Source: Candidatus Saccharibacteria bacterium UBA3749 (GTDB taxonomy: Bacteria > Patescibacteriota > Saccharimonadia > Saccharimonadales > Saccharimonadaceae). From it: 64,000 bases of DNA. This document shows, in pieces, positions 5,835 through 61,683 of this stretch. The notes under the pieces were generated by a model, which worked only from the letters and a program-made list of their open reading frames with translations, did not search any database and was not told the DNA's origin. Both the position numbers and the translations under genes were made by a program. The stretch is taken from NCBI GenBank assembly GCA_002371235.1, contig DFGN01000002.1, positions 4,774 to 68,773 on the forward strand, read 5' to 3'. Each line of letters begins with the position of its first letter. The stretch's first letter is position 1.

Positions 5835-6002
5835 AAGCTTATTGTAACATATTATTACGTTTTTTGATAAAATTTATTATATCTTTTCGACTAGCCACAA
5901 CGCTCTATTCCATGGACTACTGACGGCGTCTGGGGACCCAATTCGAGCTTGACGAGAATGGGAAGAAAGCACCAACAGGACCTGTCCAGAGACAACAAAA
6001 AA

Positions 6003-6016
6003 GGTGGAGTATAGGA
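6003..6016 (-). repeat. 14-bp direct repeat of the tRNA-Ala 3' end (att-like)
   Basis: ggtggagtatagga occurs at 6003-6016 and at 6083-6096. Confidence 0.8.
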
Positions 6017-6050
6017 AATGGGCAATCTCTAGCTACGTCCACATAAATCA

Positions 6051-6080
6051 AAATAAGCCGCAAGCGGCTTCTTTCGTTTT
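6051..6080 (-). terminator. terminator downstream of tRNA-Ala
   Basis: aagccgc-aa-gcggctt dyad flanked by A/T runs. Confidence 0.65.
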
Positions 6081-6081
6081 A

Positions 6082-6157
6082 TGGTGGAGTATAGGAGATT
6101 CGAACTCCTGACCTACTGATTGCGAACCAGTCGCTCTACCAACTGAGCTAATACCCC
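6082..6157 (-). tRNA. tRNA-Ala(CGC)
   Basis: 76-nt cloverleaf GGGGTAT...ATACTCCACCA; G3:U70 Ala identity pair; anticodon loop TTCGCAA; GTTCGAATC T-loop; encoded CCA. Confidence 0.97.
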
Positions 6158-6178
6158 ATCCTCAAATCATTATACCAT

Positions 6179-6207
6179 AAAAATAAGCCCCCGAGGGGCT
6201 TATTTTT
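6179..6207 (-). terminator. terminator after rpsI
   Basis: aaataagcccc-cga-ggggcttattt inverted repeat. Confidence 0.8.
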
Positions 6208-6601
6208 AACGCTTTGAGAACTGTTCCTTCTTGCGAGCAGAACGCAAGCCATACTTTTTGCGCTCTTTTTCTCTCGGATCGCGTGAAGTAAATCCAGCCT
6301 TCTTTAGTACCGGACGTAAATCTGGTGAATCTGTTACTAGGGCCTTCGATATAGCTAGTTTAATAGCGTCTATCTGTCCAGCAAGTCCACCACCTTTTAC
6401 GACAATAGTAATATCATACTCCTTCTGTTTACCAGCTAGTGCCAAAGGATCGGTAATTTCGGCAAGATAAGTCTTATTACCAGACAAATATTCAAGAGCC
6501 AACTTACCATTAATAGTAATCTCACCCTTACCGGCATACAAACGAGCGGTTGCCGTGGCAGATTTACGACGGCCAAGACCGTAAGTATATTTCTTTGCCA
6601 T
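6206..6601 (-). CDS. rpsI: 30S ribosomal protein S9
   Basis: GLGRRK, GGGLAGQ, ERKKYGLRSARKKEQFSKR. Confidence 0.98.
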   Translation of the reverse strand: MAKKYTYGLGRRKSATATARLYAGKGEITINGKLALEYLSGNKTYLAEITDPLALAGKQKEYDITIVVKGGGLAGQIDAIKLAISKALVTDSPDLRPVLKKAGFTSRDPREKERKKYGLRSARKKEQFSKR

Positions 6602-7451: not shown

Positions 7452-7452
7452 A

Positions 7453-8406: not shown

Positions 8407-8420
8407 ATATTCTTTTCTCC

Positions 8421-9469: not shown

Positions 9470-9477
9470 ATTCCTCC

Positions 9478-9864: not shown

Positions 9865-9868
9865 TTAT

Positions 9869-9985
9869 TTAACCCTGCCTTTGCTTATTCTTAGGTTTTT
9901 TCTTATTGATAACACGAAGCACACCCTTCCGGCGCACTATAATGTCATCAGGGGAGATTTTTTTAACACTTGCACGTACTTTCAT
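9869..9985 (-). CDS. rpmJ: 50S ribosomal protein L36, Zn-free form (absent from the ORF track)
   Basis: manual translation [38 protein letters not shown]; SD GAAAGGA. Confidence 0.95.
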
Positions 9986-12717: not shown

Positions 12718-12723
12718 ATTGTC

Positions 12724-23447: not shown

Positions 23448-23654
23448 CTATTTTTCTGAATTCGCAAGAGCTCTCTTAATTGCAGGACGGTCAAATCCAA
23501 CTATTCTCTCGCCATTTATCACAGTTACGGGCACAGTAGCAATATTTGGTTCTTTAGTGGCATCTTTTTCAACATACTCTATTCCCTCAGAATCCAACCA
23601 GTCCATCAGAGCATGACAATATGCACAAGTTGGTGTTGTATATATTTCTATCAT
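23448..23654 (-). CDS. glutaredoxin/NrdH-like redoxin
   Basis: CAYC CxxC motif, TVPV, IVGFD. Confidence 0.88.
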   Translation of the reverse strand: MIEIYTTPTCAYCHALMDWLDSEGIEYVEKDATKEPNIATVPVTVINGERIVGFDRPAIKRALANSEK

Positions 23655-24157
23655 GCTTCCATTATAGCATAAACCGCAATACCGGCAGCAACCGAAACAT
23701 TAAACGATTCCTTTTTCCCCTTCATTGGTATTTCAAGGAATATGTCAATTAAATCATATAGTGATTTATCTATGCCGTTCACTTCTTCACCAAGGATTAA
23801 AACCACATTGTTAGATAATCTATTTCTATAGTTAGATGTACCTAAATAAACCAGTTTATTTGAATTGATATTGTTTTCAAGTCCGACTACCTGCCAACCA
23901 TGCTTTTTGTAGTTTTTTAAATCTGTTTTTAAGTCAGTGGAAGAAATTATTTTTAGCATGTCCTCTGCACCAAGCGCTGTTTTATGTATTTCACGGTCGA
24001 GCTTATTCCTAAGATGTGGCAATAACGTAATGTCATGCACTCTTGGTGTATACCCAGACAAAACTACTTCATTCACGCCAAAACCCTCCGCAGTTCTTAA
24101 AATTGCACCTACGTTATAGCAAGACCTAATGTTATCAAGTACCAAAACCAATTTCAT
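23651..24157 (-). CDS. SpoU/TrmH-family RNA methyltransferase
   Basis: LDNIRSCYNVGAILRTA, GEEVNGI, EIPMKGKKESFNVSVA. Confidence 0.9.
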   Translation of the reverse strand: MKLVLVLDNIRSCYNVGAILRTAEGFGVNEVVLSGYTPRVHDITLLPHLRNKLDREIHKTALGAEDMLKIISSTDLKTDLKNYKKHGWQVVGLENNINSNKLVYLGTSNYRNRLSNNVVLILGEEVNGIDKSLYDLIDIFLEIPMKGKKESFNVSVAAGIAVYAIMEA

Positions 24158-26463
24158 TAAACTACTATATTAACCAAGTTTGCCTTTTTTACAAAGATAG
24201 TTTTCTTAATGCCGTCTTTTATATATTCGGCAACCTTATCATTCGTTTTCACAATCTCAATTACAGTCGCTTCATCATTAAGCTTTTGCTTATCTATAGT
24301 AATTCTCGCTCGAAGCTTTCCATTCACCTGCACGACCAATTCAACCGTATCTGTCGCTAAATACTTATCGTCCCATTTCGGCCACTCATCGTCAGAATCA
24401 AGTTTCTCCAACATTTCTGAAGCAAGATGTGGAGCAAATGGCTTTAGCAGCTTAGCTAACGCAGTCAAATCGTCAGATGTTACACCTTCTTTATATAGCT
24501 CATTTACATATTCCATCAAAGCTGCAACCGCAGTATTAAAATTGCATTTATGAATATCTTCCGTAACCTTCTTTATGGTTTTGTTTCGCACGATAGCATT
24601 TTTATCGGAATCACCATCATTCAGCACAAACATATCATCATCAAAACATAGATTATAACAACGATTCAAGAATCGATAAACACCACCCACCGAACGAGTA
24701 TCCCAAGCTGCATCCATATCGTATGGTCCAATAAACATTTCGTAAACGCGCAAAGTATCAGCACCGTACCCATCATTAATTACATCTAGCGGATCAATCA
24801 CGTTGCCTTTAGACTTAGACATTTTTTTGCCATCAGGAGCATTAATGTAACCATTGTATAATAGCTTTTTGATTGGTTCTCGAAAAGGCAAATACCCCTC
24901 ATCCGCAAAGAACTTACACCAGAACCTCACATAGAGTAAATGTGCCACTGCATGATCTCCACCACAATAATAATCAACAGGTTCCCAATAACTAATTGCC
25001 TCAGGGTTCCAAGCATGTTCTGTGTCATGCGGCGAAGCATAACGCCATAAATACCAAGAAGAACAAGCATAACCATCAAGTGTATCAGTTTCCCTTGTCA
25101 TTTCTTCCATATGTATCTCACCCGTCTTTGAGTCTTTCACCGGAATCGACACCTTTAACCAATCCTTAGCCTTCGCGAGTGCCGAACGTCCAGTTTTATC
25201 AGGCTTATAATCTTCAATTTCCGGCAACATAACTGGAAGTTGTTCCTCCGGAATAGCATGTGGATTACCATCCTTATCATAAGCAATCGGAATCGGACAA
25301 CCCCAGTATCTCTGACGGCTAATCAACCAATCTCGCATTCGATAGGTCGTCTTCGGTGTACCATATAAATCACGGTCCACTATTTCCGTTTCTACAATCG
25401 GCAAATTAAACTTCTCTGCAAACTCACGATCCCGCTCATCATTATACGGTACGGCCATGATAGCGCCAGTTCCATAACCAGCTAGCACATAATCCGCAAC
25501 CCAAATCGGTATTTCCTCTTTAGTAGCCGGGTTGATTGCATACGCACCAGTAAATACGCCAGTCTTTTCCTTATTCTCCTGTCGCTCTATTTCAGATTTC
25601 TTCAAAGCATCAGCACGATACTTCATTACGGCTTCTTTTGCATTATCCGAAACAATGTAGTCTAGTTTTGAATATTCCGGTGCAACCACTAAAAACGTCG
25701 CACCTTTAATTGTATCTGGCCGAGTGGTAAATACCGTAATACTGTGCGCACTATCTTTCACCTTAAAATCAATCTCTGCCCCCACACTTCGTCCAATCCA
25801 GTTCCTTTGCATTGTTTTAATCTTTTCTGGCCAATCTAATGCATCAATATCCTCAAGTAGTTCATCCGCATATTCTGTAATCTTGAAGAACCATTGTTTC
25901 ATTTTCTTCTTCTCAACTTCATGTCCGCATCGCCAACAATGGCCATTTTCAACCTGTTCGTTTGCAAGCACCGTCTGATCAACCGGACACCACCATTGAT
26001 ACGACTCCTTCTGATAAGCCAGACCCTTTCTAAATAGCTGCAAGAAGCACCACTGTGTCCACTTATAGTATTCAGGGTCCGAGGTATTGATCTCACGATC
26101 CCAGTCTATAGCGTAACCAAGTCGTTTTGCTTGTTTTCTGAAATTAGCAATATTAATCTTTGTCACTTCTTGTGGGGCAGTACCGGTCTTTATAGCGTAA
26201 TTCTCCGCCGGTAAACCAAACGTATCGTAACCGAACGGTCGCATAACATTAAGCCTTTGTTGCTCATAGAATCTCGTTAATACGTCAACAATTGTAAAAT
26301 TCCTTACATGCCCGACATGAAGTCCAGCTCCAGACGGATACGGGAACATCTCAGCTAAAAACATCTTTGGAACACTAGGCCGTATTTCAACTTTGTACGG
26401 CTTATTCTTTTCCCACTTTTGTTGCCATTTTTCTTCTATCTCTAAAGGATTATATCTTTTCAT
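24157..26463 (-). CDS. leuS: leucine--tRNA ligase
   Basis: FPYPSG..LHVGH, KMSKS, WLISRQRYWG; start moved to 26463. Confidence 0.97.
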   Translation of the reverse strand: MKRYNPLEIEEKWQQKWEKNKPYKVEIRPSVPKMFLAEMFPYPSGAGLHVGHVRNFTIVDVLTRFYEQQRLNVMRPFGYDTFGLPAENYAIKTGTAPQEVTKINIANFRKQAKRLGYAIDWDREINTSDPEYYKWTQWCFLQLFRKGLAYQKESYQWWCPVDQTVLANEQVENGHCWRCGHEVEKKKMKQWFFKITEYADELLEDIDALDWPEKIKTMQRNWIGRSVGAEIDFKVKDSAHSITVFTTRPDTIKGATFLVVAPEYSKLDYIVSDNAKEAVMKYRADALKKSEIERQENKEKTGVFTGAYAINPATKEEIPIWVADYVLAGYGTGAIMAVPYNDERDREFAEKFNLPIVETEIVDRDLYGTPKTTYRMRDWLISRQRYWGCPIPIAYDKDGNPHAIPEEQLPVMLPEIEDYKPDKTGRSALAKAKDWLKVSIPVKDSKTGEIHMEEMTRETDTLDGYACSSWYLWRYASPHDTEHAWNPEAISYWEPVDYYCGGDHAVAHLLYVRFWCKFFADEGYLPFREPIKKLLYNGYINAPDGKKMSKSKGNVIDPLDVINDGYGADTLRVYEMFIGPYDMDAAWDTRSVGGVYRFLNRCYNLCFDDDMFVLNDGDSDKNAIVRNKTIKKVTEDIHKCNFNTAVAALMEYVNELYKEGVTSDDLTALAKLLKPFAPHLASEMLEKLDSDDEWPKWDDKYLATDTVELVVQVNGKLRARITIDKQKLNDEATVIEIVKTNDKVAEYIKDGIKKTIFVKKANLVNIVV

Positions 26464-26517
26464 GCAAAAATTATACCATAAAACCAAAATAAATTAAAAC
26501 AACAGTTTCCGTAAAAG

Positions 26518-27811: not shown

Positions 27812-29008
27812 CTACAACTCCTTAGCTTTTTGTAGTTGCGGATCACGCATTGCATTAATATCTTCGTAAGAACGCTCTACTTCGTAATCAGGCTTTATTC
27901 CCTCAAGGTTGATAGAACGACCATTCGGAGTCAACCATTCTGCAGTCGTGACCTTTACGATCGACCCCTGCGACAAATCAAATAACTGTTGCACAACACC
28001 TTTACCATAAGTCGTTTCGCCTACAATTTTGGCTTTGTCATAATCCTGTAATGCGCCCGCCACAATCTCAGAAGCAGAAGCCGTAGAGCCATTCACAAGC
28101 ACAATTGTTTCCATATCCTTCAAAATCGCCTTTCCATTGCTGGCAAAAGTGTCAGTATCACCAAAATGCTTCGATTTTGTTTGAAGAATAACCTGACCAT
28201 CGAGCCATAAGCTCAATAAATCTTGTGCAGCCGAAACATACCCACCACCATTGCCGCGTAAATCTAAAATAACCTTCTTAATTCCTTTATTGCTAAAATC
28301 TTTCGCAAATTGTTGCACTTTAACACCGGTATCATTATCGAATCGCGTTACCGTTATGATCGCCGTCGACCCATCATAATCAACGTAGGCCGATACATTA
28401 TTAATTGCCTCACGCTTCATAGTAAATGATTTTTCTTGTCCATCACGCACAATGGTTACCGTTACTTCAGTACCAGTTTCACCACGCACACGCTTTGATA
28501 TCTCTTCTGTAGTCATCGCATAAACTTCTTCATCATTCACCTTATATATTATATCTCCCGCCAAAATGCCGGCCGCACGAGCCGGATTATCCGGTAAGGT
28601 TCTAAGCACCCTCACGTACCCATCACGAAGCCCCATCTCAACTCCAATACCACTACCAACCTTGCCATGTAAATCATTATAGAACTCTTCCGCATCATCT
28701 GCTCCCATGTACACAGTGTATTTATCTCCAACTGCGTCAACGAGGCCTTTTTTTGCTCCTTCAATCAATTCATCCTTTTTTATCTCGCCATTGTAGGAAT
28801 CAGTTAGTTTATAATATACTTCATCAAGCGCCGACCAATTCATATCAGAATTGTTTTGCTTCGAAAAACCTAAATACGGTGCAAACCCGCCGAATAAGCT
28901 ATCCCAATTCATTCCTATAACTAGACCAACAACCAGCATTATTGCCGACAGGACAATCGCACTACCTAGGTTAGTTTTCTTCTCGTTCCACATAACTTTT
29001 TCACTCAT
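27812..29008 (-). CDS. ctpA: S41 C-terminal processing peptidase with PDZ domain
   Basis: GIGVEM PDZ, LDLRGNGGG, TASASEIVAGALQD, TYGKGVVQ. Confidence 0.9.
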   Translation of the reverse strand: MSEKVMWNEKKTNLGSAIVLSAIMLVVGLVIGMNWDSLFGGFAPYLGFSKQNNSDMNWSALDEVYYKLTDSYNGEIKKDELIEGAKKGLVDAVGDKYTVYMGADDAEEFYNDLHGKVGSGIGVEMGLRDGYVRVLRTLPDNPARAAGILAGDIIYKVNDEEVYAMTTEEISKRVRGETGTEVTVTIVRDGQEKSFTMKREAINNVSAYVDYDGSTAIITVTRFDNDTGVKVQQFAKDFSNKGIKKVILDLRGNGGGYVSAAQDLLSLWLDGQVILQTKSKHFGDTDTFASNGKAILKDMETIVLVNGSTASASEIVAGALQDYDKAKIVGETTYGKGVVQQLFDLSQGSIVKVTTAEWLTPNGRSINLEGIKPDYEVERSYEDINAMRDPQLQKAKEL

Positions 29009-29037
29009 GGTTAATATTATACGACACCATCACAAAA

Positions 29038-30207: not shown

Positions 30208-30226
30208 AATTACATTGTAACATAGT

Positions 30227-32084: not shown

Positions 32085-32143
32085 AACACAATATTAACAC
32101 AAACGGTTTGGTTTTGGCAAGTTATTGTATATATACAGGTCTG

Positions 32144-35440: not shown

Positions 35441-35463
35441 ATAATCTGTATTATATCACATAT

Positions 35464-39110: not shown

Positions 39111-40994
39111 CTAACGGCCCGAGAAACCACCGCCGCCTCCGCCGCCTCCAGAGAATCCGCCCCCTCCACCACCAGAGAACCCAGACGAAGAACCCCCACC
39201 GGAACTAGACATCGTAGAACTTGCAGCCGCAGCACTAGCAACGTTGTTTAATCCCCTCGTAATATCCGAAATAGCTAATCCCATCAACAAATAATCTGGT
39301 TCTTCAATCTCCTTCACTTCGCAGTATTCCTTCATTTCCTTAAGCCAGCTTTCCTCCAGTCCAAATACGGCCGCATAAGGTAATAATTTCTCATATAGCT
39401 TCACAATTCCAGTCGACGAGGTATCGGCACCATTTACACTTTGTAAGAATCTTATCCTCTCGGCCTCCGCCATTCCGATGTATAGTTTTAATCCATCCAT
39501 ATACCTAGACATCTTAAGGCCCTTTAAGGTATAGCCAGAATACTTGCCGGCAGTCTTATATAGATATGTACAAACTACCACGGTAATAACCACCATCGGA
39601 ATAACCACGTACATAAAACCATCTCGAAACACTAGTATCCTGCCAAGAGAATGATCTAAATTAAACATATCAATCAAATAGCTCATTATATACGCGCCAG
39701 CAAATAAAGCAATCACAGAAAAGAATACCGCCTGAATAATAATATCACCAATCGAACTGTTGTTAGAACGTCCAAATACATACTTAGACTCCACTAACCC
39801 ATCATGTTTTAAATCGTCAGTTATTTTCTTTTCTATCGCTTTACTAAGAGCAATTAGCTTACCATTAGCAGTATGATTTCTTACTGCAATTGTAGTTCCA
39901 ACCTCAGGGCGCTCACCATTATTTATAATTGTTAATAAATCTATATATTCTTCCGTCACATCGGTTAGGTTTTTTACAATGATATTCCATTTCTGATTGT
40001 TTCTCCAAGATTTCTCGCCGACTTTCTGTAACTCAATTTTATGCCTCACTATTAAATCCAGCAACATCGGTACACGATAATTCTTCTTCTTACCTATAAA
40101 AACCTCCGTCATCTCCGGCAAGCTAAATTCCTTACTTGGTTGAAATTCTGGTTTCACGAAAGTATTTTTATAGACTAAAATTTTCTTACGTGTAGACAGA
40201 TATTTCTTCATCGCAAGGCCAATCATCACTGCACAAAACGCCCCGACACCAAGCGTGATCCATATATAAGCATAATCTTCCCGAAGTGCCGGCAACTTAA
40301 AGCTATTCGCCTTCAGCTCGACATCAAAGGTTAGGTTTTCAAACGGACTCAAATCCACTGACACGAATTGCACACCATCATCAAGCTTCGTTATTTCGCA
40401 GCGATTTCGTCCACTCTCACCGTATTTACCAACATAACACCAACTTTCACCGTTCCAAACATCCATATTATCAAAATGGAGCCTCGCCGTCACCTTGTCA
40501 AATCGTTGCAGTGCACCATTGCCATTCGTATCCCAATATAGCTCTTGAAAAATCCTGCCATTTTCATTAAACTCCGTCACAACATTAGTATATTTATATT
40601 CGAAAGTATAAGTCTGAGCTCCTAACACATAGTCGTCATTACCAGTACAAACATTATAAAAATCGTCAATCTTGTCAATACTATAAATCGGCTCAGTTAA
40701 ACCATTCCTAGTGACAATAATATCATTCCTGGTTAAGCTTGGAAGCACCAGATTATTGCCGTCTTGATTTGTATAAGGTATTTGCCGACAAATTCCTTTA
40801 TTCTGATTATATTCAGGAAAAACCGCAGTTACGCTCTCCCGAACTTTTAGGTAAGAAGTTCCATCTTCATTACTCCCAAGATAATAATCTCCAGTGAAAT
40901 CACTGAAATAAAAATTATCCGTACTCGCGGCGCTCACTGGAGTCCCAATAAGCCAAATTAAAGTTAATATAATAATAGCTATTACTCTTTTCAT
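39111..40994 (-). CDS. DUF2207-family membrane protein
   Basis: ELYWDTNG, LYEKLLPYAAVFGLE, Gly/Ser-rich tail SGGGGGGGG. Confidence 0.85.
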   Translation of the reverse strand: MKRVIAIIILTLIWLIGTPVSAASTDNFYFSDFTGDYYLGSNEDGTSYLKVRESVTAVFPEYNQNKGICRQIPYTNQDGNNLVLPSLTRNDIIVTRNGLTEPIYSIDKIDDFYNVCTGNDDYVLGAQTYTFEYKYTNVVTEFNENGRIFQELYWDTNGNGALQRFDKVTARLHFDNMDVWNGESWCYVGKYGESGRNRCEITKLDDGVQFVSVDLSPFENLTFDVELKANSFKLPALREDYAYIWITLGVGAFCAVMIGLAMKKYLSTRKKILVYKNTFVKPEFQPSKEFSLPEMTEVFIGKKKNYRVPMLLDLIVRHKIELQKVGEKSWRNNQKWNIIVKNLTDVTEEYIDLLTIINNGERPEVGTTIAVRNHTANGKLIALSKAIEKKITDDLKHDGLVESKYVFGRSNNSSIGDIIIQAVFFSVIALFAGAYIMSYLIDMFNLDHSLGRILVFRDGFMYVVIPMVVITVVVCTYLYKTAGKYSGYTLKGLKMSRYMDGLKLYIGMAEAERIRFLQSVNGADTSSTGIVKLYEKLLPYAAVFGLEESWLKEMKEYCEVKEIEEPDYLLMGLAISDITRGLNNVASAAAASSTMSSSGGGSSSGFSGGGGGGFSGGGGGGGGFSGR

Positions 40995-41053
40995 ACCATA
41001 TATTATATATCATTCTTTCAAATAAAAAACTGGAACCATGTTATAATATGCTT

Positions 41054-41968
41054 ATGGATAATAATAAAATAATGATAGTTGGTACTGGCAATGTCGGCGC
41101 ATCAATTGCTTTTGCGTTGGTTAACCAACGTACCGCAGTTAACGAAATAATATTAACCGACATTATCGCAAAAGATGCCGAAGGCGAAGCTATGGATTTG
41201 CGAGACGCTCTTGCCGTCGCTCCAAGTTTCGTTAAGATCAAAAATGGCACCTATAAGGATGCCAAAGATTGTGATGTTGTTGTAATTACGGCAGGCGCCG
41301 CTCAGAAACCCGGCGAAACTCGTATGGAACTTCTAGCAAAAAATGTCAACATTCTAAAAGGGATGATTGAACAAATCATGGCCTCCGGTTTTAACGGCAT
41401 CTTCCTCGTCGTAACTAATCCGATGGATGTTTTAACTTATTACGCCATGAAGTTTTCCGGCCTCCCGGCCGAACGCGTTATCGGCTCCGGCACCCTTCTC
41501 GATTCCGCACGTTTGCGCACTCGCATTGCCAATTATCTTAATGTTAATCCGAAATCTGTCCACGCTCACCAAATCGGTGAACACGGCGATACCGAAGTCA
41601 CCCTCTGGTCGTTGGCGGACATTGGAGGCCAAAAGATTAGTACGCTACTCCCAGCTGACGTACGTCACGATATTTCTGAATATGTTCGTAACGAGGCTTA
41701 TGACATTATCGACAAAAAAGGTGCCACCTATTATGGTATCGCTACTTGTGTTGTACAAATCTTAAATTGTATTTTCAATGATGAAATGCGCGTTCTGCCC
41801 GTATCTTCGTACGATTACTTCTCTGACACTAGTTTTGGTTTCCCATCTGTCGTCGGTCGCGCCGGAATCATTCGTCGCCTCGACCTTCGTTTATCCGAGC
41901 ACGAAGGTGTTGAACTCCAGAAATCCATTAATGCCTTAAAAAGCGCCATCAAAACCGTTAGATACTAA
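41054..41968 (+). CDS. ldh: L-lactate dehydrogenase
   Basis: VGTGNVG, TAGAAQKPGETR, TNPMD, LDSARLR, GEHGDT, KGATYYG. Confidence 0.93.
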   Translation: MDNNKIMIVGTGNVGASIAFALVNQRTAVNEIILTDIIAKDAEGEAMDLRDALAVAPSFVKIKNGTYKDAKDCDVVVITAGAAQKPGETRMELLAKNVNILKGMIEQIMASGFNGIFLVVTNPMDVLTYYAMKFSGLPAERVIGSGTLLDSARLRTRIANYLNVNPKSVHAHQIGEHGDTEVTLWSLADIGGQKISTLLPADVRHDISEYVRNEAYDIIDKKGATYYGIATCVVQILNCIFNDEMRVLPVSSYDYFSDTSFGFPSVVGRAGIIRRLDLRLSEHEGVELQKSINALKSAIKTVRY

Positions 41969-42001: not shown

Positions 42002-43348
42002 TTACATTAACGATTGTAAATATAGCAACAATTCTTGTTTCACGTAGTCGTCTTTAACTTTTTCAATCTCCGCCATATAATTTGGTAATTGCTTTTCAAG
42101 TCTCGCTTTCCGATATACTTCATACTGCTCCATTTCAGCTTCCGTCATTACTTCAGGGAAATTTCTTCCTTTATAATGTAATAACAACCCCGGCAGTCTC
42201 TCGTCATCAAAGTCAAGATTCAAATCAACCAGTTTATCTGGCTCCGCATTTCTAATTACAGCGACTTTTACTCGATCTGTATCGTTCAAGAATCCATCAT
42301 ATATCGCACCTTCTGGCTCGCTTGCCAGCGGAAACTCTGGCCGTTTCTCGTATTTTTCTCGCATTTGCTCCGCAAATTCCGGATGTTTAAGCAGCACACG
42401 CAGATTCTGTTCAACCAAATCACGCGACAGTTTAATCTTATTCCAACCATCTGCTTTTTCAAGTACCGAAAGTGGCGCTACGGCTGGACATTTATTAAAA
42501 CAAAGCTCCTTCACAATCGGATAGAACATATTCTCACCATTATCGACATCTTCATTTTGCAATAATTCCTCTAGGTTATACCGCAAATCGAAAACTAACA
42601 AATTCCCATTTCGCCCCGGAGCAATCGGAAAAGCTACTGTGGTTTTGTTAAATTCATTCTCAAAGCGCCCTGAAGCATACACAAACGGCTGCTTATTATC
42701 GAGGTTAACTAGCCTTTTTATCTCATTCTTACCCCGCATACTCAGCAAGTACTTAAAAAGATCCGGCTGTCGCTCCCGAATTAGTTTCGCCACCGCAATC
42801 GTAGCATACACATCCGACAAGGCATCATGTGCATGCTCATGCGAAACACCATTTAGCTTCGTAATTAGCTCCAAGCGATTCGTTGGCGCTCCGTCCTCTC
42901 GAAATGGCCAGTTAATTCCTTCTGGTCTGAGCGCTCTTGTTAGTCGCACTACATCCAGTATATCCCAACGATTTCGCCCATCTTTCCATTCCCATTCATA
43001 CGGATCATAGAAGTTTCGCCATAAACAAGCCCGCATAAATTCATCATCGAACCTAACCGTATTATATCCAACCGCAATCGTATTCGGCAAAAATATTTCT
43101 TCAGTCACAAAGCGACAAAACTCCACCTCGCTAATCCCATCCATCAGCGTTTGCTGTGGTGTAATCCCAGTGACATTAATCGCACTCGGACTCGGCAAAG
43201 CATCGTTGGTCATCTTTATCAAAACATTCACTGGCTCACCCACCGGATTTAGTTCCATATCGGTCCTCTGACCAGCAAACTGCATAATCCTATCCTCTCG
43301 CGGCCTCAAGCCCGAAGTCTCAAGATCATAAAAGAAAAACGTTTTCAT
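42002..43348 (-). CDS. sbcB: exodeoxyribonuclease I
   Basis: FYDLETSG, QFAGQRTD, GYNTVRFDDE, HAHDALSDVYAT. Confidence 0.93.
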   Translation of the reverse strand: MKTFFFYDLETSGLRPREDRIMQFAGQRTDMELNPVGEPVNVLIKMTNDALPSPSAINVTGITPQQTLMDGISEVEFCRFVTEEIFLPNTIAVGYNTVRFDDEFMRACLWRNFYDPYEWEWKDGRNRWDILDVVRLTRALRPEGINWPFREDGAPTNRLELITKLNGVSHEHAHDALSDVYATIAVAKLIRERQPDLFKYLLSMRGKNEIKRLVNLDNKQPFVYASGRFENEFNKTTVAFPIAPGRNGNLLVFDLRYNLEELLQNEDVDNGENMFYPIVKELCFNKCPAVAPLSVLEKADGWNKIKLSRDLVEQNLRVLLKHPEFAEQMREKYEKRPEFPLASEPEGAIYDGFLNDTDRVKVAVIRNAEPDKLVDLNLDFDDERLPGLLLHYKGRNFPEVMTEAEMEQYEVYRKARLEKQLPNYMAEIEKVKDDYVKQELLLYLQSLM

Positions 43349-43452
43349 ATTCACCTTATATCACATTCCTCGCCTGAATTCAACTATACGTATTGTTCAG
43401 CTCGAAACACGCTTCCATTGCTATTTTATAAAACCAGATAAATCTTAAAAAC

Positions 43453-53697: not shown

Positions 53698-54099
53698 CTA
53701 CCATACTTTAACAAGTATTTCACCACCAAGACGATTTTTCTTCGCCTCACGACCGGTCATTAGACCTTTCGAGGTGGATACGATTACAATACCGCGTCCA
53801 GACTTAATCGTAGGTAATTCATCAGCCGAAGAATACACACGACGACCAGGCTTAGATACCTTGGTAATCTCACTAATGCGAGCATTTGTGCCTGGTTCAT
53901 TAATTACGATATGAAGCATTTCGCGTGGTTCACCAGCTACTACTTCACACGATACAATGTAGCCATTCTTAGCTAAAACTTTCATTAGTCCAGCTTTCAA
54001 TTTCGAAGCCGGAACTAGTATTTCGTTCTTGCCTACTATCACCGCATTACGAATTCGCGTGATAAGATCGGCAATTTGATCAGTAGATTGTATTGACAT
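53698..54099 (-). CDS. rpsH: 30S ribosomal protein S8
   Basis: DQIADLITRIRNA, VSKPGRRVY, STSKGLMT. Confidence 0.98.
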   Translation of the reverse strand: MSIQSTDQIADLITRIRNAVIVGKNEILVPASKLKAGLMKVLAKNGYIVSCEVVAGEPREMLHIVINEPGTNARISEITKVSKPGRRVYSSADELPTIKSGRGIVIVSTSKGLMTGREAKKNRLGGEILVKVW

Positions 54100-54111
54100 A
54101 TTTCTCCTTTC

Positions 54112-54381
54112 TTACCAGCTACTCTTAGTTACACCAGGAATCTCACCGTTCGATGCTTTTTCCCGGAAGTTAATACGTGAAAGACCAAATCGACGCATGT
54201 AACCACGTGGACGACCGTCCAACATGTCACGATTCTTTAACCTTGTTGGTGAAGAATTGCGCGGTAACTTTTGTAAACCTTCTAGGTCACCCGCCATCTT
54301 CAACGCTGCACGCTTTTCTTTATATTTGTTATACATCTTTTGTCGTTTTTCATCGCGAAGCACTGCAGATTTCTTTGCCAT
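54112..54381 (-). CDS. rpsN: 30S ribosomal protein S14, Zn-free form
   Basis: [32 protein letters not shown]; start moved to 54381. Confidence 0.96.
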
Positions 54382-54382
54382 A

Positions 54383-55015
54383 CTACTTTGCCTCCTTTTC
54401 AAACGGCATTCCGAATAATTCTAACAATTTAAGACTTCCTTCCTTTGAGCCATTTTTAATTATAAACGTAACTTCAAGACCGTGGAGTACAGATGCATCC
54501 TCGAAAGTGATTTCTGGGAATACAGTCTGCTCTTTTAGTCCTAAGTTATAGTTACCTTGCACATCAAAAGCCTTCCTCGAAACGCCGTGAAAATCACGCA
54601 CGTGTGGTAAAGCAATATTGATTAAGCGATCGACAAATTCATACATTTTGTCATTACGCAAAGTTGTGAGGTACCCAACCGGTGCACCCATTCCCTTACG
54701 AATTTTAAACGTCGCAATTGATTTTTTCGCGAGACGAGAAGTTGCAGCCTGACCTGTAATTTTAGCCAGCGTCAATGCTACGGTTTCAGTAAAACGCTTA
54801 TCTTCACGCTTCTTACCAACACCGCAAGAGACTACAACTTTTTCTAGTTTAGGAACTTGGTTAATATTTTTGAGACCAAGCTCTTTTTGTAGTTTCACCT
54901 TTAGCTCATTATTATAGAGAGCCTTCAGGCGTGGTTGTGCTTTGGCCTCGGACTTGACTGCTTTTTTCACAGTCTTAGTGGTCTTAGCCTCGGCAGCCGT
55001 TTTCTTTTCCGCCAT
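54383..55015 (-). CDS. rplE: 50S ribosomal protein L5
   Basis: [32 protein letters not shown]. Confidence 0.97.
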
Positions 55016-55323
55016 TACTTAGCTCCTTTCTTAGCTTTACTTGCTTTTTTGTCGTTCTTGCCGTTGTCAACTTTTTTCACAGCCGACTTCACGTATTTAG
55101 CTGCTTCAACTAGCTTCAAATTCGACAAATCAATACCAACGTGAATAGTTTTCTTACCACCAGTTGGGTTCATATATGATTTTTTCATGTGACGCTCGAT
55201 TGTACCAATCCCCTCAAGACAAGCCTTGCCAGCCTTGCGATCGACTTTTACAATCTTCGCCGTTTCACCCTTATGATTGCCAGATAGCACCATCACTTTA
55301 TCATGAATCTTCAAACTTTTCAT
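55015..55323 (-). CDS. rplX: 50S ribosomal protein L24
   Basis: DKVMVLSGNHKG KOW motif; position in operon. Confidence 0.93.
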   Translation of the reverse strand: MKSLKIHDKVMVLSGNHKGETAKIVKVDRKAGKACLEGIGTIERHMKKSYMNPTGGKKTIHVGIDLSNLKLVEAAKYVKSAVKKVDNGKNDKKASKAKKGAK

Positions 55324-55691
55324 TAGAGTACCTCCGGCGCCAAGCTAATAATCTTGGTAAATCCAGCATCACGTATTTCGCGTGGGATTGGCCCAAAGAC
55401 ACGTGTGCCTCTTGGTGTTTTATCTTCGTTTACAAGAACCGCAGCGTTCTCATCGAATCTAATTGTAGAGCCATCTGGACGACGAATCGGAGCGACGGTT
55501 CTTACAATTACTGCACGAACTACGGCCTTCTTCTTTACACCACCAGTCGGTGAAGCATCCTTGACTGAACAAGTCACTACATCGCCAACTTTAGCATAAC
55601 GAGCATGTGTACCGCCAAGCACCCGAATCACTCCAAGTTCTTTAGCGCCACTGTTGTCCGCTACCTTTAGTCTTGTTTCCTGCTGTATCAT
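55323..55691 (-). CDS. rplN: 50S ribosomal protein L14
   Basis: [36 protein letters not shown]. Confidence 0.99.
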
Positions 55692-56068
55692 TACTCTTCC
55701 TCCCCTTCTTCTGCCTTCGCCGTATTAACTTCTTCAGCTTCAGCTTTCTTAGTCTCAGCAATCTTATCAGCGCCTATTTTCTCCGGCATCTCAATCGTAT
55801 TTACATCATCTTTCAATTCAACCTTACCACGAGAGCGCTCAAGAATCTTAACTAAAGTATAAGCCTTAGTCTTAGAAATTGGACGCGTCATCGCAATCTG
55901 CACCTTGTCGCCCTCATGAGCTTCATTATTCTCGTCATGTGCAGTATATTTACGAGTTTTTGTATACTGTTTACGATAAAGTGGATGAGTTTCCCTGCTC
56001 ACGATTGAGACGGTAATGGTCTTATCGCGCTTATCACTAGTCACAATACCAATCAAAGTGTGTGCCAT
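55691..56068 (-). CDS. rpsQ: 30S ribosomal protein S17 with acidic tail
   Basis: [31 protein letters not shown]. Confidence 0.97.
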
Positions 56069-56069
56069 T

Positions 56070-56489
56070 TTAAAACTCCTCTTTCTTAATTATTTTGCAT
56101 TTGACTGGCAATTTATGAGAAGCCAAACGAAGGGCCTCTTTTGCCTGTTCGTCCGTAACATCTGCTATTTCAAACATCACAGTACCAGCCTTAACTTTTG
56201 CCACAAAGAACTGCGGCTCACCTTTACCGGAACCCATTTTTACATCAAGTGGTTTCTTGGTTACAGGTGTATGTGGGAAAATTCGAATCCAAATCTTGCC
56301 ACCACGCTTAATGAAACGCGTAATTGCTTGACGTGCGGCCTCGATTTGTTTCGAAGTGACACGCTCATTATCAAGCGACATCAAGCCATAGTCACCAAAT
56401 GCAACCGTGTTGCAACGCGTAGCTATGCCCTCGTTCTTGCCTTTGCGCACCTTGCGGTGAGCAGTTTTTCTTGGAAGTAAAATTGCCAT
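56070..56489 (-). CDS. rplP: 50S ribosomal protein L16
   Basis: QIEAARQAI, WIRIFPH, MGSGKG, KLPVK. Confidence 0.98.
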   Translation of the reverse strand: MAILLPRKTAHRKVRKGKNEGIATRCNTVAFGDYGLMSLDNERVTSKQIEAARQAITRFIKRGGKIWIRIFPHTPVTKKPLDVKMGSGKGEPQFFVAKVKAGTVMFEIADVTDEQAKEALRLASHKLPVKCKIIKKEEF

Positions 56490-56490
56490 A

Positions 56491-57117
56491 TTATTTCTCC
56501 CCCTTATAGATCCAGACCTTTACGCCTACAATTCCAGCAATCGTTGGAGCATGATGACAATAGAAATCAATGTCAGCACGCAAAGTATGTAGAGGTACTG
56601 AACCCTCGATAAATTTTTCTCGGCGACTCATTTCAGCGCCATTCAAACGGCCAGAGACCTCGATACGTACACCCTTAGCTCCCGCATTCATTGTAGACTG
56701 CAAAGCCATTTTGACTGCACGACGGAAATTCATACGCTTGCCGAGCTGGAAACCAATATTCTCTGCAACTAGCTTTGCGTTGAGCTCTGGTTTCTTTACT
56801 TCCTCAACATTGATACGAATTGGACCCTCAATCATTTTTTCGAGCTCTTTTTTAAGCTCGTTGATTCCAGCACCCTGCTTACCAATCACGCTACCAGCCT
56901 TAGCTGTCAAAATCGTAATTGTCGTCAGATTTGCCGAACGCTCTATACCAATTCGCGCAATTGTCGGACGAGATTTGTACCTGTCCTCAATAAATTTGCG
57001 AATCTTGACGTCTTCCACTAGCCAATGGCGAAAGTCTGATTTTCGAGTAAACCACTTCGAAGACCAATCCTTGCTGACCTGGAGACGGTAAGAGATGGGA
57101 TTAACCTTTTGACCCAT
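56491..57117 (-). CDS. rpsC: 30S ribosomal protein S3
   Basis: MGQKVNP, GRLNGAEMSR, VPLHTLRADID. Confidence 0.98.
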   Translation of the reverse strand: MGQKVNPISYRLQVSKDWSSKWFTRKSDFRHWLVEDVKIRKFIEDRYKSRPTIARIGIERSANLTTITILTAKAGSVIGKQGAGINELKKELEKMIEGPIRINVEEVKKPELNAKLVAENIGFQLGKRMNFRRAVKMALQSTMNAGAKGVRIEVSGRLNGAEMSRREKFIEGSVPLHTLRADIDFYCHHAPTIAGIVGVKVWIYKGEK

Positions 57118-57118
57118 G

Positions 57119-57538
57119 TTACTTTTTCTCCTTCTTCGCTTCTGCCTTTGCCTTCGACTCGGCTTTCTCGGCAGTTTTCTTTACTTTCTCTTCGCCTGCG
57201 ACCTCGACGAAAATATTACTACTAATCTTCTCAAATGGAAGCGCACGTCCGCGTGAAGCTGGTTTATATCTACGCATCCTGGTTCCGCTTGTCACGAAAA
57301 TTCGTGCAATTCTGATACTCTTAGGATCAATCGAAACCTTAGTGTTATTCAGTAAGTTAGCATTTGCTGACTCTACAGCCTTCAAGACGGCCTTTGCAGC
57401 GCGCCTTGGAGTGTTCTCAAGAATCACCACGGCATCAGCTACGTAGCGATCTCTAACTAGAGATGCAACAATGCTGGTTTTCCTTGGTTGGGAATCAATT
57501 CCCTTCTCATATGCATGTGCAAAAAACGTTTCCGCCAT
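57119..57538 (-). CDS. rplV: 50S ribosomal protein L22
   Basis: QPRKTSIVASLVR, AVESANAN, PASRGRA. Confidence 0.95.
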   Translation of the reverse strand: MAETFFAHAYEKGIDSQPRKTSIVASLVRDRYVADAVVILENTPRRAAKAVLKAVESANANLLNNTKVSIDPKSIRIARIFVTSGTRMRRYKPASRGRALPFEKISSNIFVEVAGEEKVKKTAEKAESKAKAEAKKEKK

Positions 57539-57540
57539 AA

Positions 57541-57837
57541 TTAATTAGCTCCCTTCTCGGCAGCTGCAGCTTCAGCTGCCTTCTTGCCACCGTGGCGCTT
57601 AAACTTACGAGTTGGCGCAAATTCGCCAAGCTTGTGACCTACCATATTTTCTGAAACGAAGACAGGCACATGAACCTTGCCGTTATGTACAGCAATCGTT
57701 CGACCCACCATCTCTGGCGAAATCGTTGACTGTCTTGCCCAAGTCTTGATTATGGTGCGATCTTCAGCAGTCAAAGCGGCAATTTTCTTTGCGAGTTTGA
57801 AGTCCACAAATGGACCTTTTTTAAGACTCCTAGACAT
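57541..57837 (-). CDS. rpsS: 30S ribosomal protein S19
   Basis: [30 protein letters not shown]. Confidence 0.99.
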
Positions 57838-58673
57838 TATTTCCTCTTTCCTTCGTGGCGACTGCGCACGATCATTTTATTGGTTTTCTTATTGTGACGA
57901 GTTCGGTAGCCAAGCGTTAACTGTCCCCATGGAGTGCGTGGAGCCTTACCAGAACCGTGACGACCACCATCACCACCACCATGTGGGTGATCTGTTGCGT
58001 TCATCACTACACCACGTACAGTTGGACGAATACCTTTGCGGCGGCGGCGGCCAGCTGCACCAATCTTCACATTCTGGTGCTGTAAGTTGGAAACAGTACC
58101 AACTGATGCTTCACATTCACTTAATACTTTACGTACTTCACCCGATGGTAATCGAAGTGTAGCATAGCCATTTTCTTTTGCCATTAATTGTGCCTGAACA
58201 CCTGCAGCACGCACCATCTGTGCGCCCTTACCTGGCGTCAATTCTACAGCATATACAAATGTACCCACTGGGATATTCTCAAGTGGCATTCTGCTTGATT
58301 CTTCAACTTCAATTTCCTTACCAGTTTTGAAAGTAGTGCCCTTCGCCATTTTAACATCGGCTAAGACATAATAATATACGCCATTCTCATCCTTAACTCT
58401 TGCGATACGAGCTGAACGATTTGGATCATATTCGATTTCCTCAACCGTAAAAGTCAAGTTCTCTGGTAATTTGTAAGTCAAAATACGATAATGGCGTTTT
58501 ACACCGCCACCACGATGTCGTACCGTGATACGACCTTGGTTATTCTTGCCCGCTTGTTGCTTCTTAGCTAGTGTCAAAGACTTCATTGGCTTACGAGTCG
58601 TAATTTGATCGAAATCCTGTGTCGTCTTCTGGCGCTGCGCCGGAGTAATCGGGCGATAAGCCTTGATTGACAT
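57837..58673 (-). CDS. rplB: 50S ribosomal protein L2
   Basis: [30 protein letters not shown]. Confidence 0.99.
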
Positions 58674-59068
58674 TATTTATTCTCCTTCCCTGCATTCTTG
58701 TCAGCCTTTTTGGCTTCCTTTGCGCTGGTCTTCTTCTCATCTTCGTGTTCATTTACATCTTCAAACACTTTGATTGAGTCACCTTGCTTTAATCTAACAT
58801 AAGCAAACTTTTTATCCTGTCGATGTGTAATACCTGGATAGGCGTGTTTGCCCTTGCTAAACTTAGTTTTCTTACCATCACGAATTAAAGTTCTCACATC
58901 CGTAACGGTTACATTAAATTCCTTTTCGACCATCTTGGCGATTTCTTGCTTACCCATTGATTCTTTTACTGGAAAAACGTAAATCCGATTAGTCTGTTCT
59001 AGATAGCTTTTCTCGGTAGCACGAGGCTCTAGGAAATGAAGCTTCAAATTAGTATTATCTTCTTTCAT
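58673..59068 (-). CDS. rplW: 50S ribosomal protein L23
   Basis: PRATEKS, YVFPV, KKFAYVRLK; position in operon. Confidence 0.93.
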   Translation of the reverse strand: MKEDNTNLKLHFLEPRATEKSYLEQTNRIYVFPVKESMGKQEIAKMVEKEFNVTVTDVRTLIRDGKKTKFSKGKHAYPGITHRQDKKFAYVRLKQGDSIKVFEDVNEHEDEKKTSAKEAKKADKNAGKENK

Positions 59069-59071
59069 CGC

Positions 59072-59668
59072 TTATTTCTCCTCTCCGAGTAGCCACTTCT
59101 CTGTAGCTTTCAAAGCAGCCTCGCTAAATACAATTGCATCTGCATTCATAATATCAAAGACATTAAGATACGTAGCGCGTACTAGCTTGACGTTTGGCAA
59201 ATTATTAGTTGAACGTAAAATTTCAGGAGTCTTCTCTGCTGCTACTGCTAGCACATTCTTACCCTCAAGTTTCATGTCCTTCAAAACTTTAGCTGCATCC
59301 TTTGTCTTACCGGTCAATTTCACATCGGCAGCAAGCGTCATTACAGCTTTATCAGCATTTTTCATTGAAAGAGCCTGTCTTACAGCTAATAATTTCGCTG
59401 ATTTAGCCATTTTCTTGGTAAAATTCTCATTACCAGTGCGACCAAATGCCACACCACCATGTCGCCAAATCGGGTTACGAGTCGAGCCAAATCGTGCTCT
59501 ACCAGTGCCTTTTTGCCTCCATGGTTTCTTGCCACCACCGCTCACTTCACCGCGTTTCAAAGTTTTGGCGTGTGAAGAACGTGAATTTGCAAGATACGAA
59601 TCATAAGCGAGTTTCACGAGCTCATGGTTTTCTACCTTCAGACCAAAAATATCTTTATTCAAAGCCAT
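59072..59668 (-). CDS. rplD: 50S ribosomal protein L4
   Basis: GGGKKPWRQKGTGRAR, WRHGGVAFG. Confidence 0.97.
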   Translation of the reverse strand: MALNKDIFGLKVENHELVKLAYDSYLANSRSSHAKTLKRGEVSGGGKKPWRQKGTGRARFGSTRNPIWRHGGVAFGRTGNENFTKKMAKSAKLLAVRQALSMKNADKAVMTLAADVKLTGKTKDAAKVLKDMKLEGKNVLAVAAEKTPEILRSTNNLPNVKLVRATYLNVFDIMNADAIVFSEAALKATEKWLLGEEK

Positions 59669-59669
59669 A

Positions 59670-60290
59670 TTACTCCTTTCCCTCTACGCTCACGATACCT
59701 TTATTCGGTCCAGGCACTGCACCCTTAAGACCGATTAGGTTTTTCTCTACGTCAATATAAGATACGACTAGATTCTTCACGGTTACAGTATCGTGACCCA
59801 TTCGGCCAGGCATCCTCTTGCCTTTCCAAACTTTCTGTGGATACATGGAACCAATCGAACCTACTTTACGAATATCTCCTTTGAAACCGTGAGTATTACG
59901 TGATTCATTAAAATTATGGCGCTTCACCGTACCAGCATATCCTTTACCCTTGCTAGTGCCAGTTACAGCAACCTTATCTCCTAATTTGAAGCTCTCGACC
60001 GTTAAGCTGTCACCTAGCTTCATGCCTTCCGGGATTTCCTCAACGCGGAATTCCTTCAAGACTTTAGGATTAATATTTTCACCAGCCTTTTTTACGTGGC
60101 CGGAAACCGACTTGCTCAGATTCTTACCCTGACCGTAGCCCACTTGCACAGCATTATAACCGTCGCTATCGACAGTCTTTATCTGAGTCACCGTGCACGG
60201 ACCAGCTTGTAGGATTGTGACTGGAGTCACAACACCATCATCACCGATGATCTGGGTCATACCAATTTTGGTGCCGAGAATGACTTGCAT
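59670..60290 (-). CDS. rplC: 50S ribosomal protein L3
   Basis: GTKIGMTQ, GYNAVQVG, GTSKGKG, MPGRMG; start moved to 60290 (SD GAAAGGA). Confidence 0.98.
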   Translation of the reverse strand: MQVILGTKIGMTQIIGDDGVVTPVTILQAGPCTVTQIKTVDSDGYNAVQVGYGQGKNLSKSVSGHVKKAGENINPKVLKEFRVEEIPEGMKLGDSLTVESFKLGDKVAVTGTSKGKGYAGTVKRHNFNESRNTHGFKGDIRKVGSIGSMYPQKVWKGKRMPGRMGHDTVTVKNLVVSYIDVEKNLIGLKGAVPGPNKGIVSVEGKE

Positions 60291-60520
60291 TCTATTCCTT
60301 TCCTTTAAATTATTTGATTTAGAGAGTTTTGCCTCTGTACAACAGGCAAAACTTTTCCTGCCTCTAGCAGGTGGTTCGAAACGCTTTACTTTTAAACACA
60401 CCAAGTAATGCATCTCTTACAATTTCGCACTCTCCACCAGCAAAATTGCACTATTAAAACTAGACTTTTAGGTTGGTTTCCACTAATTGCATCGCGGACC
60501 TTACCTTATGTCTAGGTAAC
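60291..60520 (-). promoter_or_regulatory. structured 5' leader of the rplC operon
   Basis: TGGTATAAT at 60535-60527; hairpins at 60325-60353, 60357-60371 and 60420-60448. Confidence 0.55.
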
Positions 60521-60583
60521 TCTTCCATTATACCACGAATCGCCCCTCTTGCCAACCCCTAATTTGAACAACTTATCCAATAG

Positions 60584-61660
60584 CTATACCATGTTTTCCA
60601 GATAACTGTCAATAAACCCATCGATCTTTCCGTCTAATACTGCCTCCGGGTCGGTCTCTTCATATCCCGTGCGCGTATCCTTCACTAACTTATATGGTTG
60701 TAGTACGTAATTTCGAATCTGCTGTCCCCATCCAGCCGATTCGCCCGCCCGAAGTTCTCCGATTGTCGCCGCATGCTGTTCTAGCTGCATCTGCGCCAGT
60801 TTGCCACGTAAAATCTCCATCGCCTTTTCTTTATTCTGGTGTTGACTACGTTCATTCTGAATCGCCACCACAGTATTAGTAGGCAAATGTGTAATCCTCA
60901 CCGCCGAATCAGTCGTATTGACTCCCTGTCCACCGTGTCCACCACTGTGATATACGTCAATCCTAAGATCTTTCTCATCGATTACAACATCAGTCTCTGC
61001 TCTAATAATAGGCAAAATCTCTACTAGCGCAAATGAGGTCTGGCGCAAATTATTCGCATTAAAAGGCGACAATCGCACCAAGCGATGTACTCCGTGTTCA
61101 GATTTCAAAAACCCATAGGCATTAATACCAGTAATCTCATAAACCGCTGTTTTGATCCCAGCTTCTTCACCAACCACTCTCTCGAGGCAACTAGCTTTCC
61201 AGCCCTTCCTTTCAAAAAATCTCAAATACATTCTCTCGAGCATCCCCGCCCAATCCATTGCTTCAGTACCACCAGCACCGGAAGTAATCCTAATAATTGC
61301 ATTTTCACTATCATACGGCCCCTGAAATCTCAGACTCTTCCGTAGCTCCGTAAACTCATCTTCCATTGCCTGAATCTGTTCGCCAAATTCTTCTTTCATA
61401 TCATCATCCGAAATCTTCATTAGTTCCCGCAAATCCTCACTTTGCGTCCGCATCAATTCCCATGGCTGTACCTCATCGGACAAACGAGCTAATTCCTGAT
61501 TCTTCGCCGTAGCTTCTTCCACATTACGCCAAATCTCTGGTTCCGCCACCTCCTTCTCTAATTCCGCAATGCGTGATAATTTGTTCGAAATCTCTAATTT
61601 CTCATAAGCCTTCAAAAATTCTTCTGTAAAACCATCTAAACGTTTTTCTAATTCTTGCAT
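60584..61660 (-). CDS. prfB: peptide chain release factor 2, no programmed frameshift
   Basis: SPF motif (RLSPFNA), GGQ, IRNYVLQPY; ORF continuous from the start. Confidence 0.97.
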   Translation of the reverse strand: MQELEKRLDGFTEEFLKAYEKLEISNKLSRIAELEKEVAEPEIWRNVEEATAKNQELARLSDEVQPWELMRTQSEDLRELMKISDDDMKEEFGEQIQAMEDEFTELRKSLRFQGPYDSENAIIRITSGAGGTEAMDWAGMLERMYLRFFERKGWKASCLERVVGEEAGIKTAVYEITGINAYGFLKSEHGVHRLVRLSPFNANNLRQTSFALVEILPIIRAETDVVIDEKDLRIDVYHSGGHGGQGVNTTDSAVRITHLPTNTVVAIQNERSQHQNKEKAMEILRGKLAQMQLEQHAATIGELRAGESAGWGQQIRNYVLQPYKLVKDTRTGYEETDPEAVLDGKIDGFIDSYLENMV

Positions 61661-61683
61661 AAAAACATTATAGCATACCGCTT

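Follow-up and report, generated by a model that had tools for sequence, protein, structure and literature searches.

Leaderless genes in bacteria and their probable counterparts in a Saccharibacteria genome

Leaderless genes have been established experimentally in Mycobacterium, Corynebacterium, Streptomyces and Deinococcus (PMC6028130, PMC3160421), and surveys name the Actinobacteria and Deinococcus-Thermus as rich lineages, with the Saccharibacteria and the candidate phyla radiation (CPR) unmentioned (PMC6028130, PMC3160421). The architecture is known as group C in GeneMarkS-2 (PMC6028130), and such genes were called 'TA-led' by Zheng et al. in 2011 (PMC3160421). The present analysis deals with a 64,000-nucleotide stretch of DNA (the window) from Candidatus Saccharibacteria bacterium UBA3749, in which a series of genes has a -10 promoter box, then mostly 6-7 nucleotides (nt), then ATG, with no Shine-Dalgarno (SD) sequence. 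The best explanation, which can be given a probability of roughly 80%, is that extended -10 promoters are set at the ATG and would give rise to leaderless mRNAs, and the sequence evidence supports placing this architecture with the known group C type, here in Saccharibacteria.

The likeness to group C, which includes C. glutamicum and S. coelicolor, is close. In both cases the first genes of operons carry a Pribnow box 6-8 nt ahead of the start codon and lack an SD, whereas the operon-internal genes and the remaining operon heads have an SD. The scale is also similar, as group C accounts for over 20% of genes, or for 25-50% when transcripts are counted, and in both cases the orthologues of related species switch between leaderless and SD-led forms. 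The differences are that this is a low-GC (42%), 0.72-Mb genome of the episymbiont type in the Patescibacteria/CPR; that a complete TATAAT extended by TRTG forms the -10 element, in place of the looser TAnnnT of those high-GC groups; that ATG is nearly exclusive (94%); and that the leaderless starts are here predicted from sequence. Leaderless genes have reportedly been described in M. tuberculosis (Cortes 2013) and D. deserti (de Groot 2014).

Two further groups invite comparison. Maps of transcription start sites (TSSs) in Mycoplasma pneumoniae, M. gallisepticum and Mesoplasma florum are said to show strong -10 elements, weak -35 elements and some leaderless transcripts, and the present genome resembles these genome-reduced Mollicutes in its small size, its promoters dominated by the -10 element and its short or absent leaders, although the lineages are unrelated. 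Extended -10 promoters of the TRTGn kind occur in low-GC Gram-positive bacteria, and the promoters described here share with them the sequence T-R-T-G-n-TATAAT, a weak -35 and a sigma factor with region 3. Unlike those described here, the extended -10 promoters of Firmicutes mostly drive leadered, SD-containing mRNAs. Just 3.4% of Firmicutes fall into group C (PMC6028130).

The source assembly comprises 719 kb in 31 contigs, and the window corresponds to C11:4774-68773. Its closest public relatives are metagenome-assembled genomes from the guts of sheep, goat, yak, deer and cattle, which carry the labels Candidatus Saccharibacteria or Ca. Nanosyncoccus, including Ca. Nanosyncoccus alces. A simple codon-usage gene caller found 627 genes covering 88% of the genome, of which 614 could be analysed. 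Genes were assigned to the leaderless type by a strict criterion, which asked for the TG extension, 4 or more of 6 matches to the hexamer and a spacer of 6-7 nt, and by a looser one, and the strict sequence pattern was the 18-mer TGNTAWAAT-N6-ATG, with the same pattern reversed as the control. A gene was taken as operon-internal when the upstream gene lay within 15 nt, and SD strength was computed as the hybridisation energy between the 18 nt 5' of the start and the tail of the genome's own 16S rRNA.

A sharp spacing signal across the genome

The simplest rival to a promoter set at the start codon is an accident of composition, in which AT-rich intergenic DNA yields TATAAT-like strings beside ATGs. 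The window taken alone leaves some room for this, since the loose pattern TGNTANNNT-N6-ATG has 10 matches there, about three times the expectation of 3.5 under dinucleotide shuffling, and a count of 10 is also reached in 3 of 100 shuffles. Seven of the 10 matches fall on the starts of open reading frames (ORFs), and the excess is suggestive, not decisive. The whole genome is another matter. The initial annotation had proposed a genome-wide histogram of -10-to-ATG distances as a check, and a peak was found at 6-7 nt, about 10 times the level at other spacings: among 490 TGnTAnAAT boxes (TGNTANAAT, both strands), the ATG comes at 6 nt in 96 and at 7 nt in 35, with 1-22 ATGs at each of the remaining spacings from 0 to 25. 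For the strict pattern there are 82 matches, and for the reversed control only one. Counted by gene, a TG-extended box precedes a candidate start with a spacer of 6 in 97 genes, of 7 in 40, and of any other length in 1-16. The strict criterion takes in 131 genes, where about 9 would be expected from internal in-frame start codons, and the loose one 196, where about 45 would be expected by chance. Moreover, the box is kept at orthologues while the flanking bases diverge. The observation is thus real and far above chance; with the histogram and its controls refuting it, an origin in composition is hardly conceivable.

The promoter and the predicted start of transcription

The 118 sites with a spacer of 6 share the consensus T(68%)-R(87%)-T(84%)-G(85%)-n-T-A-t-a-a-T, or TRTGnTATAAT, with the T at -17, the R at -16, the T at -15 and the G at -14. 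The -35 region is faint (about 47% T-T). The TG stands one base 5' of the hexamer, as in extended -10 (TGn) sigma-70 promoters, where it can make up for a weak -35, and the RpoD encoded by this genome, which scores above the NCBIfam cut-off, has all of Pfam regions 1.2, 2, 3 and 4, including region 3, the part that contacts the TG. The idea that the sites are copies of one repeated cassette was rejected, as their composition equals the background outside -17 to -7. The start of rpoD itself (C23, ~21690-21720, outside the window) has TATAAT 8 nt before the ATG and no SD, and so appears near-leaderless.

RNA polymerase favours start sites at which a pyrimidine at -1 precedes a purine at +1. At 112 of the 118 spacer-6 sites (95%) the base at -1, which played no part in selecting the sites, is a pyrimidine, compared with 50% in SD-led genes and 27-57% at other positions of the spacer. 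Across bacteria, TSSs centre 7 bp 3' of the -10 element (PMC12641261); with a spacer of 6 the A of the ATG is the seventh base after the hexamer, the usual start position. When distances from strict boxes to starts are tallied at operon heads (box within 200 nt), 122 lie at 6-10 nt, none at 11-15 and 63 at 16-40. The same box at 16-40 nt thus also drives short SD-containing leaders, and the empty zone is that in which a leader would be too short to hold an SD.

The boxes would then be ordinary sigma-70-type extended -10 promoters, T-R-T-G-n-TATAAT with a weak -35, placed so that the usual start, at the seventh base after the hexamer, would be the A of the ATG. Transcripts made from them would have 5'-AUG as their first codon and lack a ribosome-binding site, so that ribosomes would have to load straight onto the 5'-terminal AUG (leaderless initiation). 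Both the start of transcription at the A of the ATG and the leaderless translation of the 5'-AUG are inferred from sequence. The remaining genes, those internal to operons and a second set of heads with short leaders (probably ~10-33 nt), would use classical pairing between SD and anti-SD.

Two probable initiation regimes in one genome

Position in the operon separates the two classes. Of the heads of transcription units 34-49% carry the box, but only 5% (9/175) of operon-internal genes do, and among 413 operon heads 176 are of the leaderless type (~43%) and 173 have a strong SD. Leaderless-type genes have a mean SD-duplex energy of ~0 to -1.5 kcal/mol, weaker even than the -2.5 kcal/mol at internal control ATGs, and the remaining genes one of -5 to -7 kcal/mol, with 72% of them reaching -6 or stronger. 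The initial annotation had proposed two translation-initiation regimes in a reduced genome; the two regimes are supported by the SD energies and by operon position, and the link to genome reduction is suggestive only, as taken up below. Its companion claim, that ribosomal-protein genes keep strong SDs, also holds, with all values in the clusters at 6206-9864 and 53698-60290 between -6 and -12 kcal/mol.

These contrasts bear on a second rival, in which the TATAAT-like box acts at the RNA level as an A/U-rich, non-SD ribosome-binding site or enhancer in a leadered mRNA, as in the 'group B' of GeneMarkS-2. Intergenic regions are indeed AT-rich, and S1 proteins bind A/U-rich leaders, a four-domain S1 being encoded here. 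A ribosome-binding site, however, would be expected at operon-internal genes too, which have SDs instead and the box in only one in twenty; the motif holds a TRTG extension that is specific to DNA; the same motif 16-40 nt upstream of SD-led genes could act there only as a promoter; and the near-constant pyrimidine at -1 fits the selection of a transcription start, not the binding of ribosomes. An RNA element of this kind is accordingly judged quite unlikely, and promoters set at the ATG are retained as the explanation.

No part of the translation machinery is missing. The 3' end of the 16S rRNA reads ...GGAUUACCUCCUUUCU, with the anti-SD (CCUCC) intact, and both the initiation factor IF3 (infC) and S1 are present, the latter as a short, four-domain protein. 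Loss of S1, IF3 or the anti-SD as a cause of the pattern was rejected, since all three are there. A short, four-domain S1 has likewise been reported for most CPR (PMC9297842). As for infC (C14, ~13250-13310, outside the window), there is no ATG, GTG or TTG at the homologous N-terminus, and the frame fits an ATC start that follows AAAGGA by 5 nt, the leader being ~30 nt long and lying behind TTTGATATAAT. A non-AUG infC start behind an SD on a leadered mRNA is the classical autoregulatory design, and this start seems from the sequence to have been kept.

The sites in the window

The boxes and spacers cited in the initial annotation all match the sequence, including the spacer of 9 nt at pheS, and no SD is found at any of these starts, as it had claimed; among the hexamers that of sbcB (TATAAG) alone is weak. 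NCBIfam and Pfam bear out the gene names, and TGn precedes the -10 hexamer at 7 of the 10 cited starts. The sites are collected in Table 1, together with one that had been missed and with the ribosomal-protein operon as the contrasting class.

Table 1. Promoter boxes and starts in the window (positions are those of the window; spacer is the distance from box to ATG).
Feature	Coordinates	Strand	ATG	Box	Spacer (nt)	Remarks
FISUMP-domain gene	5832..5849	-	5834	TGTTACAAT	6	FISUMP domain match
68-aa ORF (23654..23448)	23652..23669	-		TGCTATAAT	6	Extra site, missed by the initial annotation
leuS	26461..26478	-	26463	TGGTATAAT	6	
ctpA (S41 peptidase)	29006..29021	-	29008	TATAAT	7	
PcsB-like hydrolase gene	30205..30222	-	30207	TGTTACAAT	6	
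ftsE	32082..32099	-	32084	TGTTAATAT	6	
pheS	35438..35458	-	35440	TGATATAAT	9	
DUF2207 gene	40992..41007	-	40994	TATAAT	7	Pfam DUF2207 N and C domains
ldh	41039..41056	+	41054	TGTTATAAT	6	
sbcB	43346..43363	-	43348	TGATATAAG	6	
Ribosomal-protein operon (contrast class)	53698..60290	-				SD -8 to -12 kcal/mol at every gene; tiny intergenic gaps
prfB	61658..61675	-	61660	TGCTATAAT	6	Directly 3' of a terminator-like hairpin

Both regimes can meet within one operon. The gene in the ftsX position (start 31267), 3' of the leaderless-type ftsE, has an SD of -16 kcal/mol, and pheT has one of -12.5 kcal/mol next to pheS, which from its 9-nt spacer is predicted to be near-leaderless, with a leader of 2-3 nt. 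The 68-amino-acid (aa) ORF (23448-23669, minus strand) has a perfect TGCTATAAT-N6-ATG that lies inside the 3' end of the upstream gene, with a 4-nt overlap. The prfB gene (release factor RF2; 60584-61660, minus strand) is one uninterrupted ORF with no programmed +1 frameshift site, an element that serves in autoregulation in many bacteria.

Start codons and the case against leaderless starts

The initial annotation held that several starts in its ORF track were too long, and this proved true of leuS by 8 codons and of ldh and sbcB by 2 each. The track's TTG start of leuS (26487) lies upstream of the -10 box, and its ATG for ldh (41048) adjoins the box. Genome-wide, 66 of the 196 leaderless-type starts lie 3' of the start of the longest ORF, some of them falling within the ~45 chance calls. 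For sbcB, the gene caller, by whose TAnnnT rule TATAAG fails, gave a downstream SD-like start at 43285; this was rejected, as profile alignment favours 43348.

A third rival accepts the promoters as real and places translation at a downstream in-frame codon, so that the mRNA would be leadered and the first ATG incidental. It draws on the fact that start codons were picked using the motif itself, and that a third of the leaderless-type genes have other candidate starts nearby. Against it, the family profiles and orthologue N-termini of FtsE, LeuS, Ldh, SbcB and PrfB begin at the proposed ATG or within a few residues of it. In terms of residue to profile position, the alignments begin at 1 to 1 for FtsE (whose profile 1-214 aligns to residues 1-215), 4 to 1 for LeuS, 3 to 6 for Ldh and 2 to 7 for SbcB. 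The N-terminal residues are also conserved in congeners from the proposed ATG onwards (MILLDSVTKK in FtsE, M-D/E-RY-D/E-P in LeuS), and the ATG at +6/+7 stands about tenfold above neighbouring positions, unlike incidental ATGs. Translation from downstream codons is thus very unlikely as a general account, and the proposed ATGs are kept as the probable starts.

Several points nevertheless weigh against leaderless mRNAs of this kind. The sole Saccharibacteria with TSSs derived from RNA-seq is N. lyticus TM7x, with 188 TSSs in use, and its distance from -10 to TSS is more variable than in most species (PMC12641261). Sites with spacers of 7 or 8 may yield leaders of 1-2 nt instead of none, and extra upstream promoters could make leadered transcripts of the same genes. 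The -10 of sbcB is weak, the conserved final T being replaced by G; a TTGAAT 17 bp upstream of the hexamer is a possible -35, and this gene could be leadered, given its poor -10 and an AAGG 7 nt upstream. Finally, some 45 of the 196 loose calls are to be expected by chance, and both gene calls and start choices come from the simple caller, so that class sizes are approximate: the sequence points to about 125-150 leaderless-type genes of ~614, or 20-25% of genes and ~30-43% of transcription units.

Conservation and switching among relatives

The seven congeneric species are well diverged, with coding DNA just 67-75% identical to the window. At leuS, ctpA and ftsE the box and its spacing are nonetheless kept in 7/7 congeners while the bases of the spacer and flanks differ. 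All seven have TGCTAWAAT, 6-7 nt and ATG at ctpA, and TG-TAnnnT with 6 nt at ftsE, where the hexamers are TAACAT, TATACT, TAAAAT, TATAAT and TATTAT. In 4/6 congeners the ATG of the PcsB-like gene has a TG-extended box 6 nt ahead of it. Further afield, a strong box lies 5-9 nt before the homologous ATG of leuS, mostly at 7, in 65 of 80 relatives (LeuS 65-83% identical), the hexamer in each being picked by a best-match rule; about 8 of the 80 have instead a box 22-38 nt upstream and an SD, AGAGGA or AAGGA. For prfB, orthologues from 30 genomes across the class (45-65% identity) were compared: TAnnnT stands 5-9 nt upstream in 23 of them, and in 17 of these it matches TATAAT in at least 5/6 positions at 6-8 nt.

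Other genes change form within the genus. The ldh gene is of the leaderless type in 4/7 congeners, and the other three have the same box with a leader of ~22 nt that holds AAAGGGTGG (SD). At sbcB, two congeners have TGGTATAAT, 7 nt and ATG, and two are SD-led; at pheS the box lies 7-10 nt upstream in 6/7 congeners, and in the seventh a short leader contains GGAAGG, which resembles an SD. The switching at ldh, sbcB and pheS therefore shows that the two forms interconvert over short evolutionary distances. Such interconversion between leaderless and SD-led genes was described for the Actinobacteria by Zheng et al. (PMC3160421). Within Ca. Nanosyncoccus, ldh, leuS, sbcB and pheS are each leaderless-type in some members, with the same box and a 16-30 nt SD leader in others.

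Distribution across Saccharimonadia and Patescibacteria

The strict pattern was present in all 121 sampled genomes of the class, with reversed controls of 0-3. In a part of the tables that was entered by hand and covers fewer than the 121 genomes, the share of boxes with an ATG at +6 is 21-26% in the genus of this genome (58-112 sites per genome), 3-16% in the rest of the family, 3-10% in the rest of the order and 5-23% in other families, against a chance level of ~1.5-2%. Among 96 other Patescibacteria the raw strict count, unscaled to the number of TGNTAWAAT boxes, ranges from 0 to 37 and lies above the control in nearly all. The counts for the class and the phylum therefore describe an architecture that is lineage-wide and of variable intensity, with this genus at the extreme of the 217 genomes sampled (58-112 strict matches, against 43 or fewer elsewhere). 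The genus is extreme in part because its promoters are unusually consensus-like, 392 boxes being counted where the reversed control gives 116.

Compaction in divergent gene pairs

A link to genome reduction is hinted at by the shorter intergenic regions of leaderless divergent pairs, the median length being 72 bp where both genes are of the leaderless type and 196 bp where neither is. Three divergent pairs outside the window (C16:4646-4663, C23:23344-23363 and C24:2375-2394) are only 16-18 bp apart; in these the two extended -10 boxes run into each other and form a palindrome, as in catATGCTATAATTATATCATatg, and the upstream half of each promoter lies inside the opposite gene. In the window, the DUF2207 gene and ldh form a divergent pair with two back-to-back leaderless-type promoters in 59 bp (40995-41053). 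Leaderless architecture may serve compaction, with divergent leaderless pairs 16-72 bp apart. Taken jointly, the comparisons incline us towards an architecture that is kept at orthologous housekeeping genes throughout the class and so is probably ancestral in it, that coexists with an intact SD system, that flips between forms among congeners and that may favour compaction.

Implications for Saccharibacteria and the CPR

No report of leaderless genes in Saccharibacteria or CPR was found in the openly searchable literature, which leaves outside subscription journals and supplements, including the GeneMarkS-2 list of group C, and a preprint on the TM7x transcriptome makes no mention of promoters, TSSs or untranslated regions. 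The architecture thus apparently has not yet been described for this lineage.

Its consequences begin with annotation. Start codons in Saccharibacteria and CPR genomes are easily called too long, as with leuS, ldh and sbcB, and here this may concern up to about one-tenth of genes. The geometry of a promoter at the ATG offers a cheap, conserved rule with which starts could be corrected and operon structure read in uncultured genomes. By the same token, a minimal expression cassette for the few tractable Saccharibacteria should need no more than TRTGnTATAAT, a 6-nt spacer and an ATG. The switching within the genus supplies natural matched pairs in which the costs and benefits of each mode of initiation could be compared. 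More broadly, a deep-branching lineage with a reduced ribosome would join the few bacteria in which at least one-fifth of genes are apparently leaderless, which is of relevance to the debate on whether leaderless initiation is ancestral.

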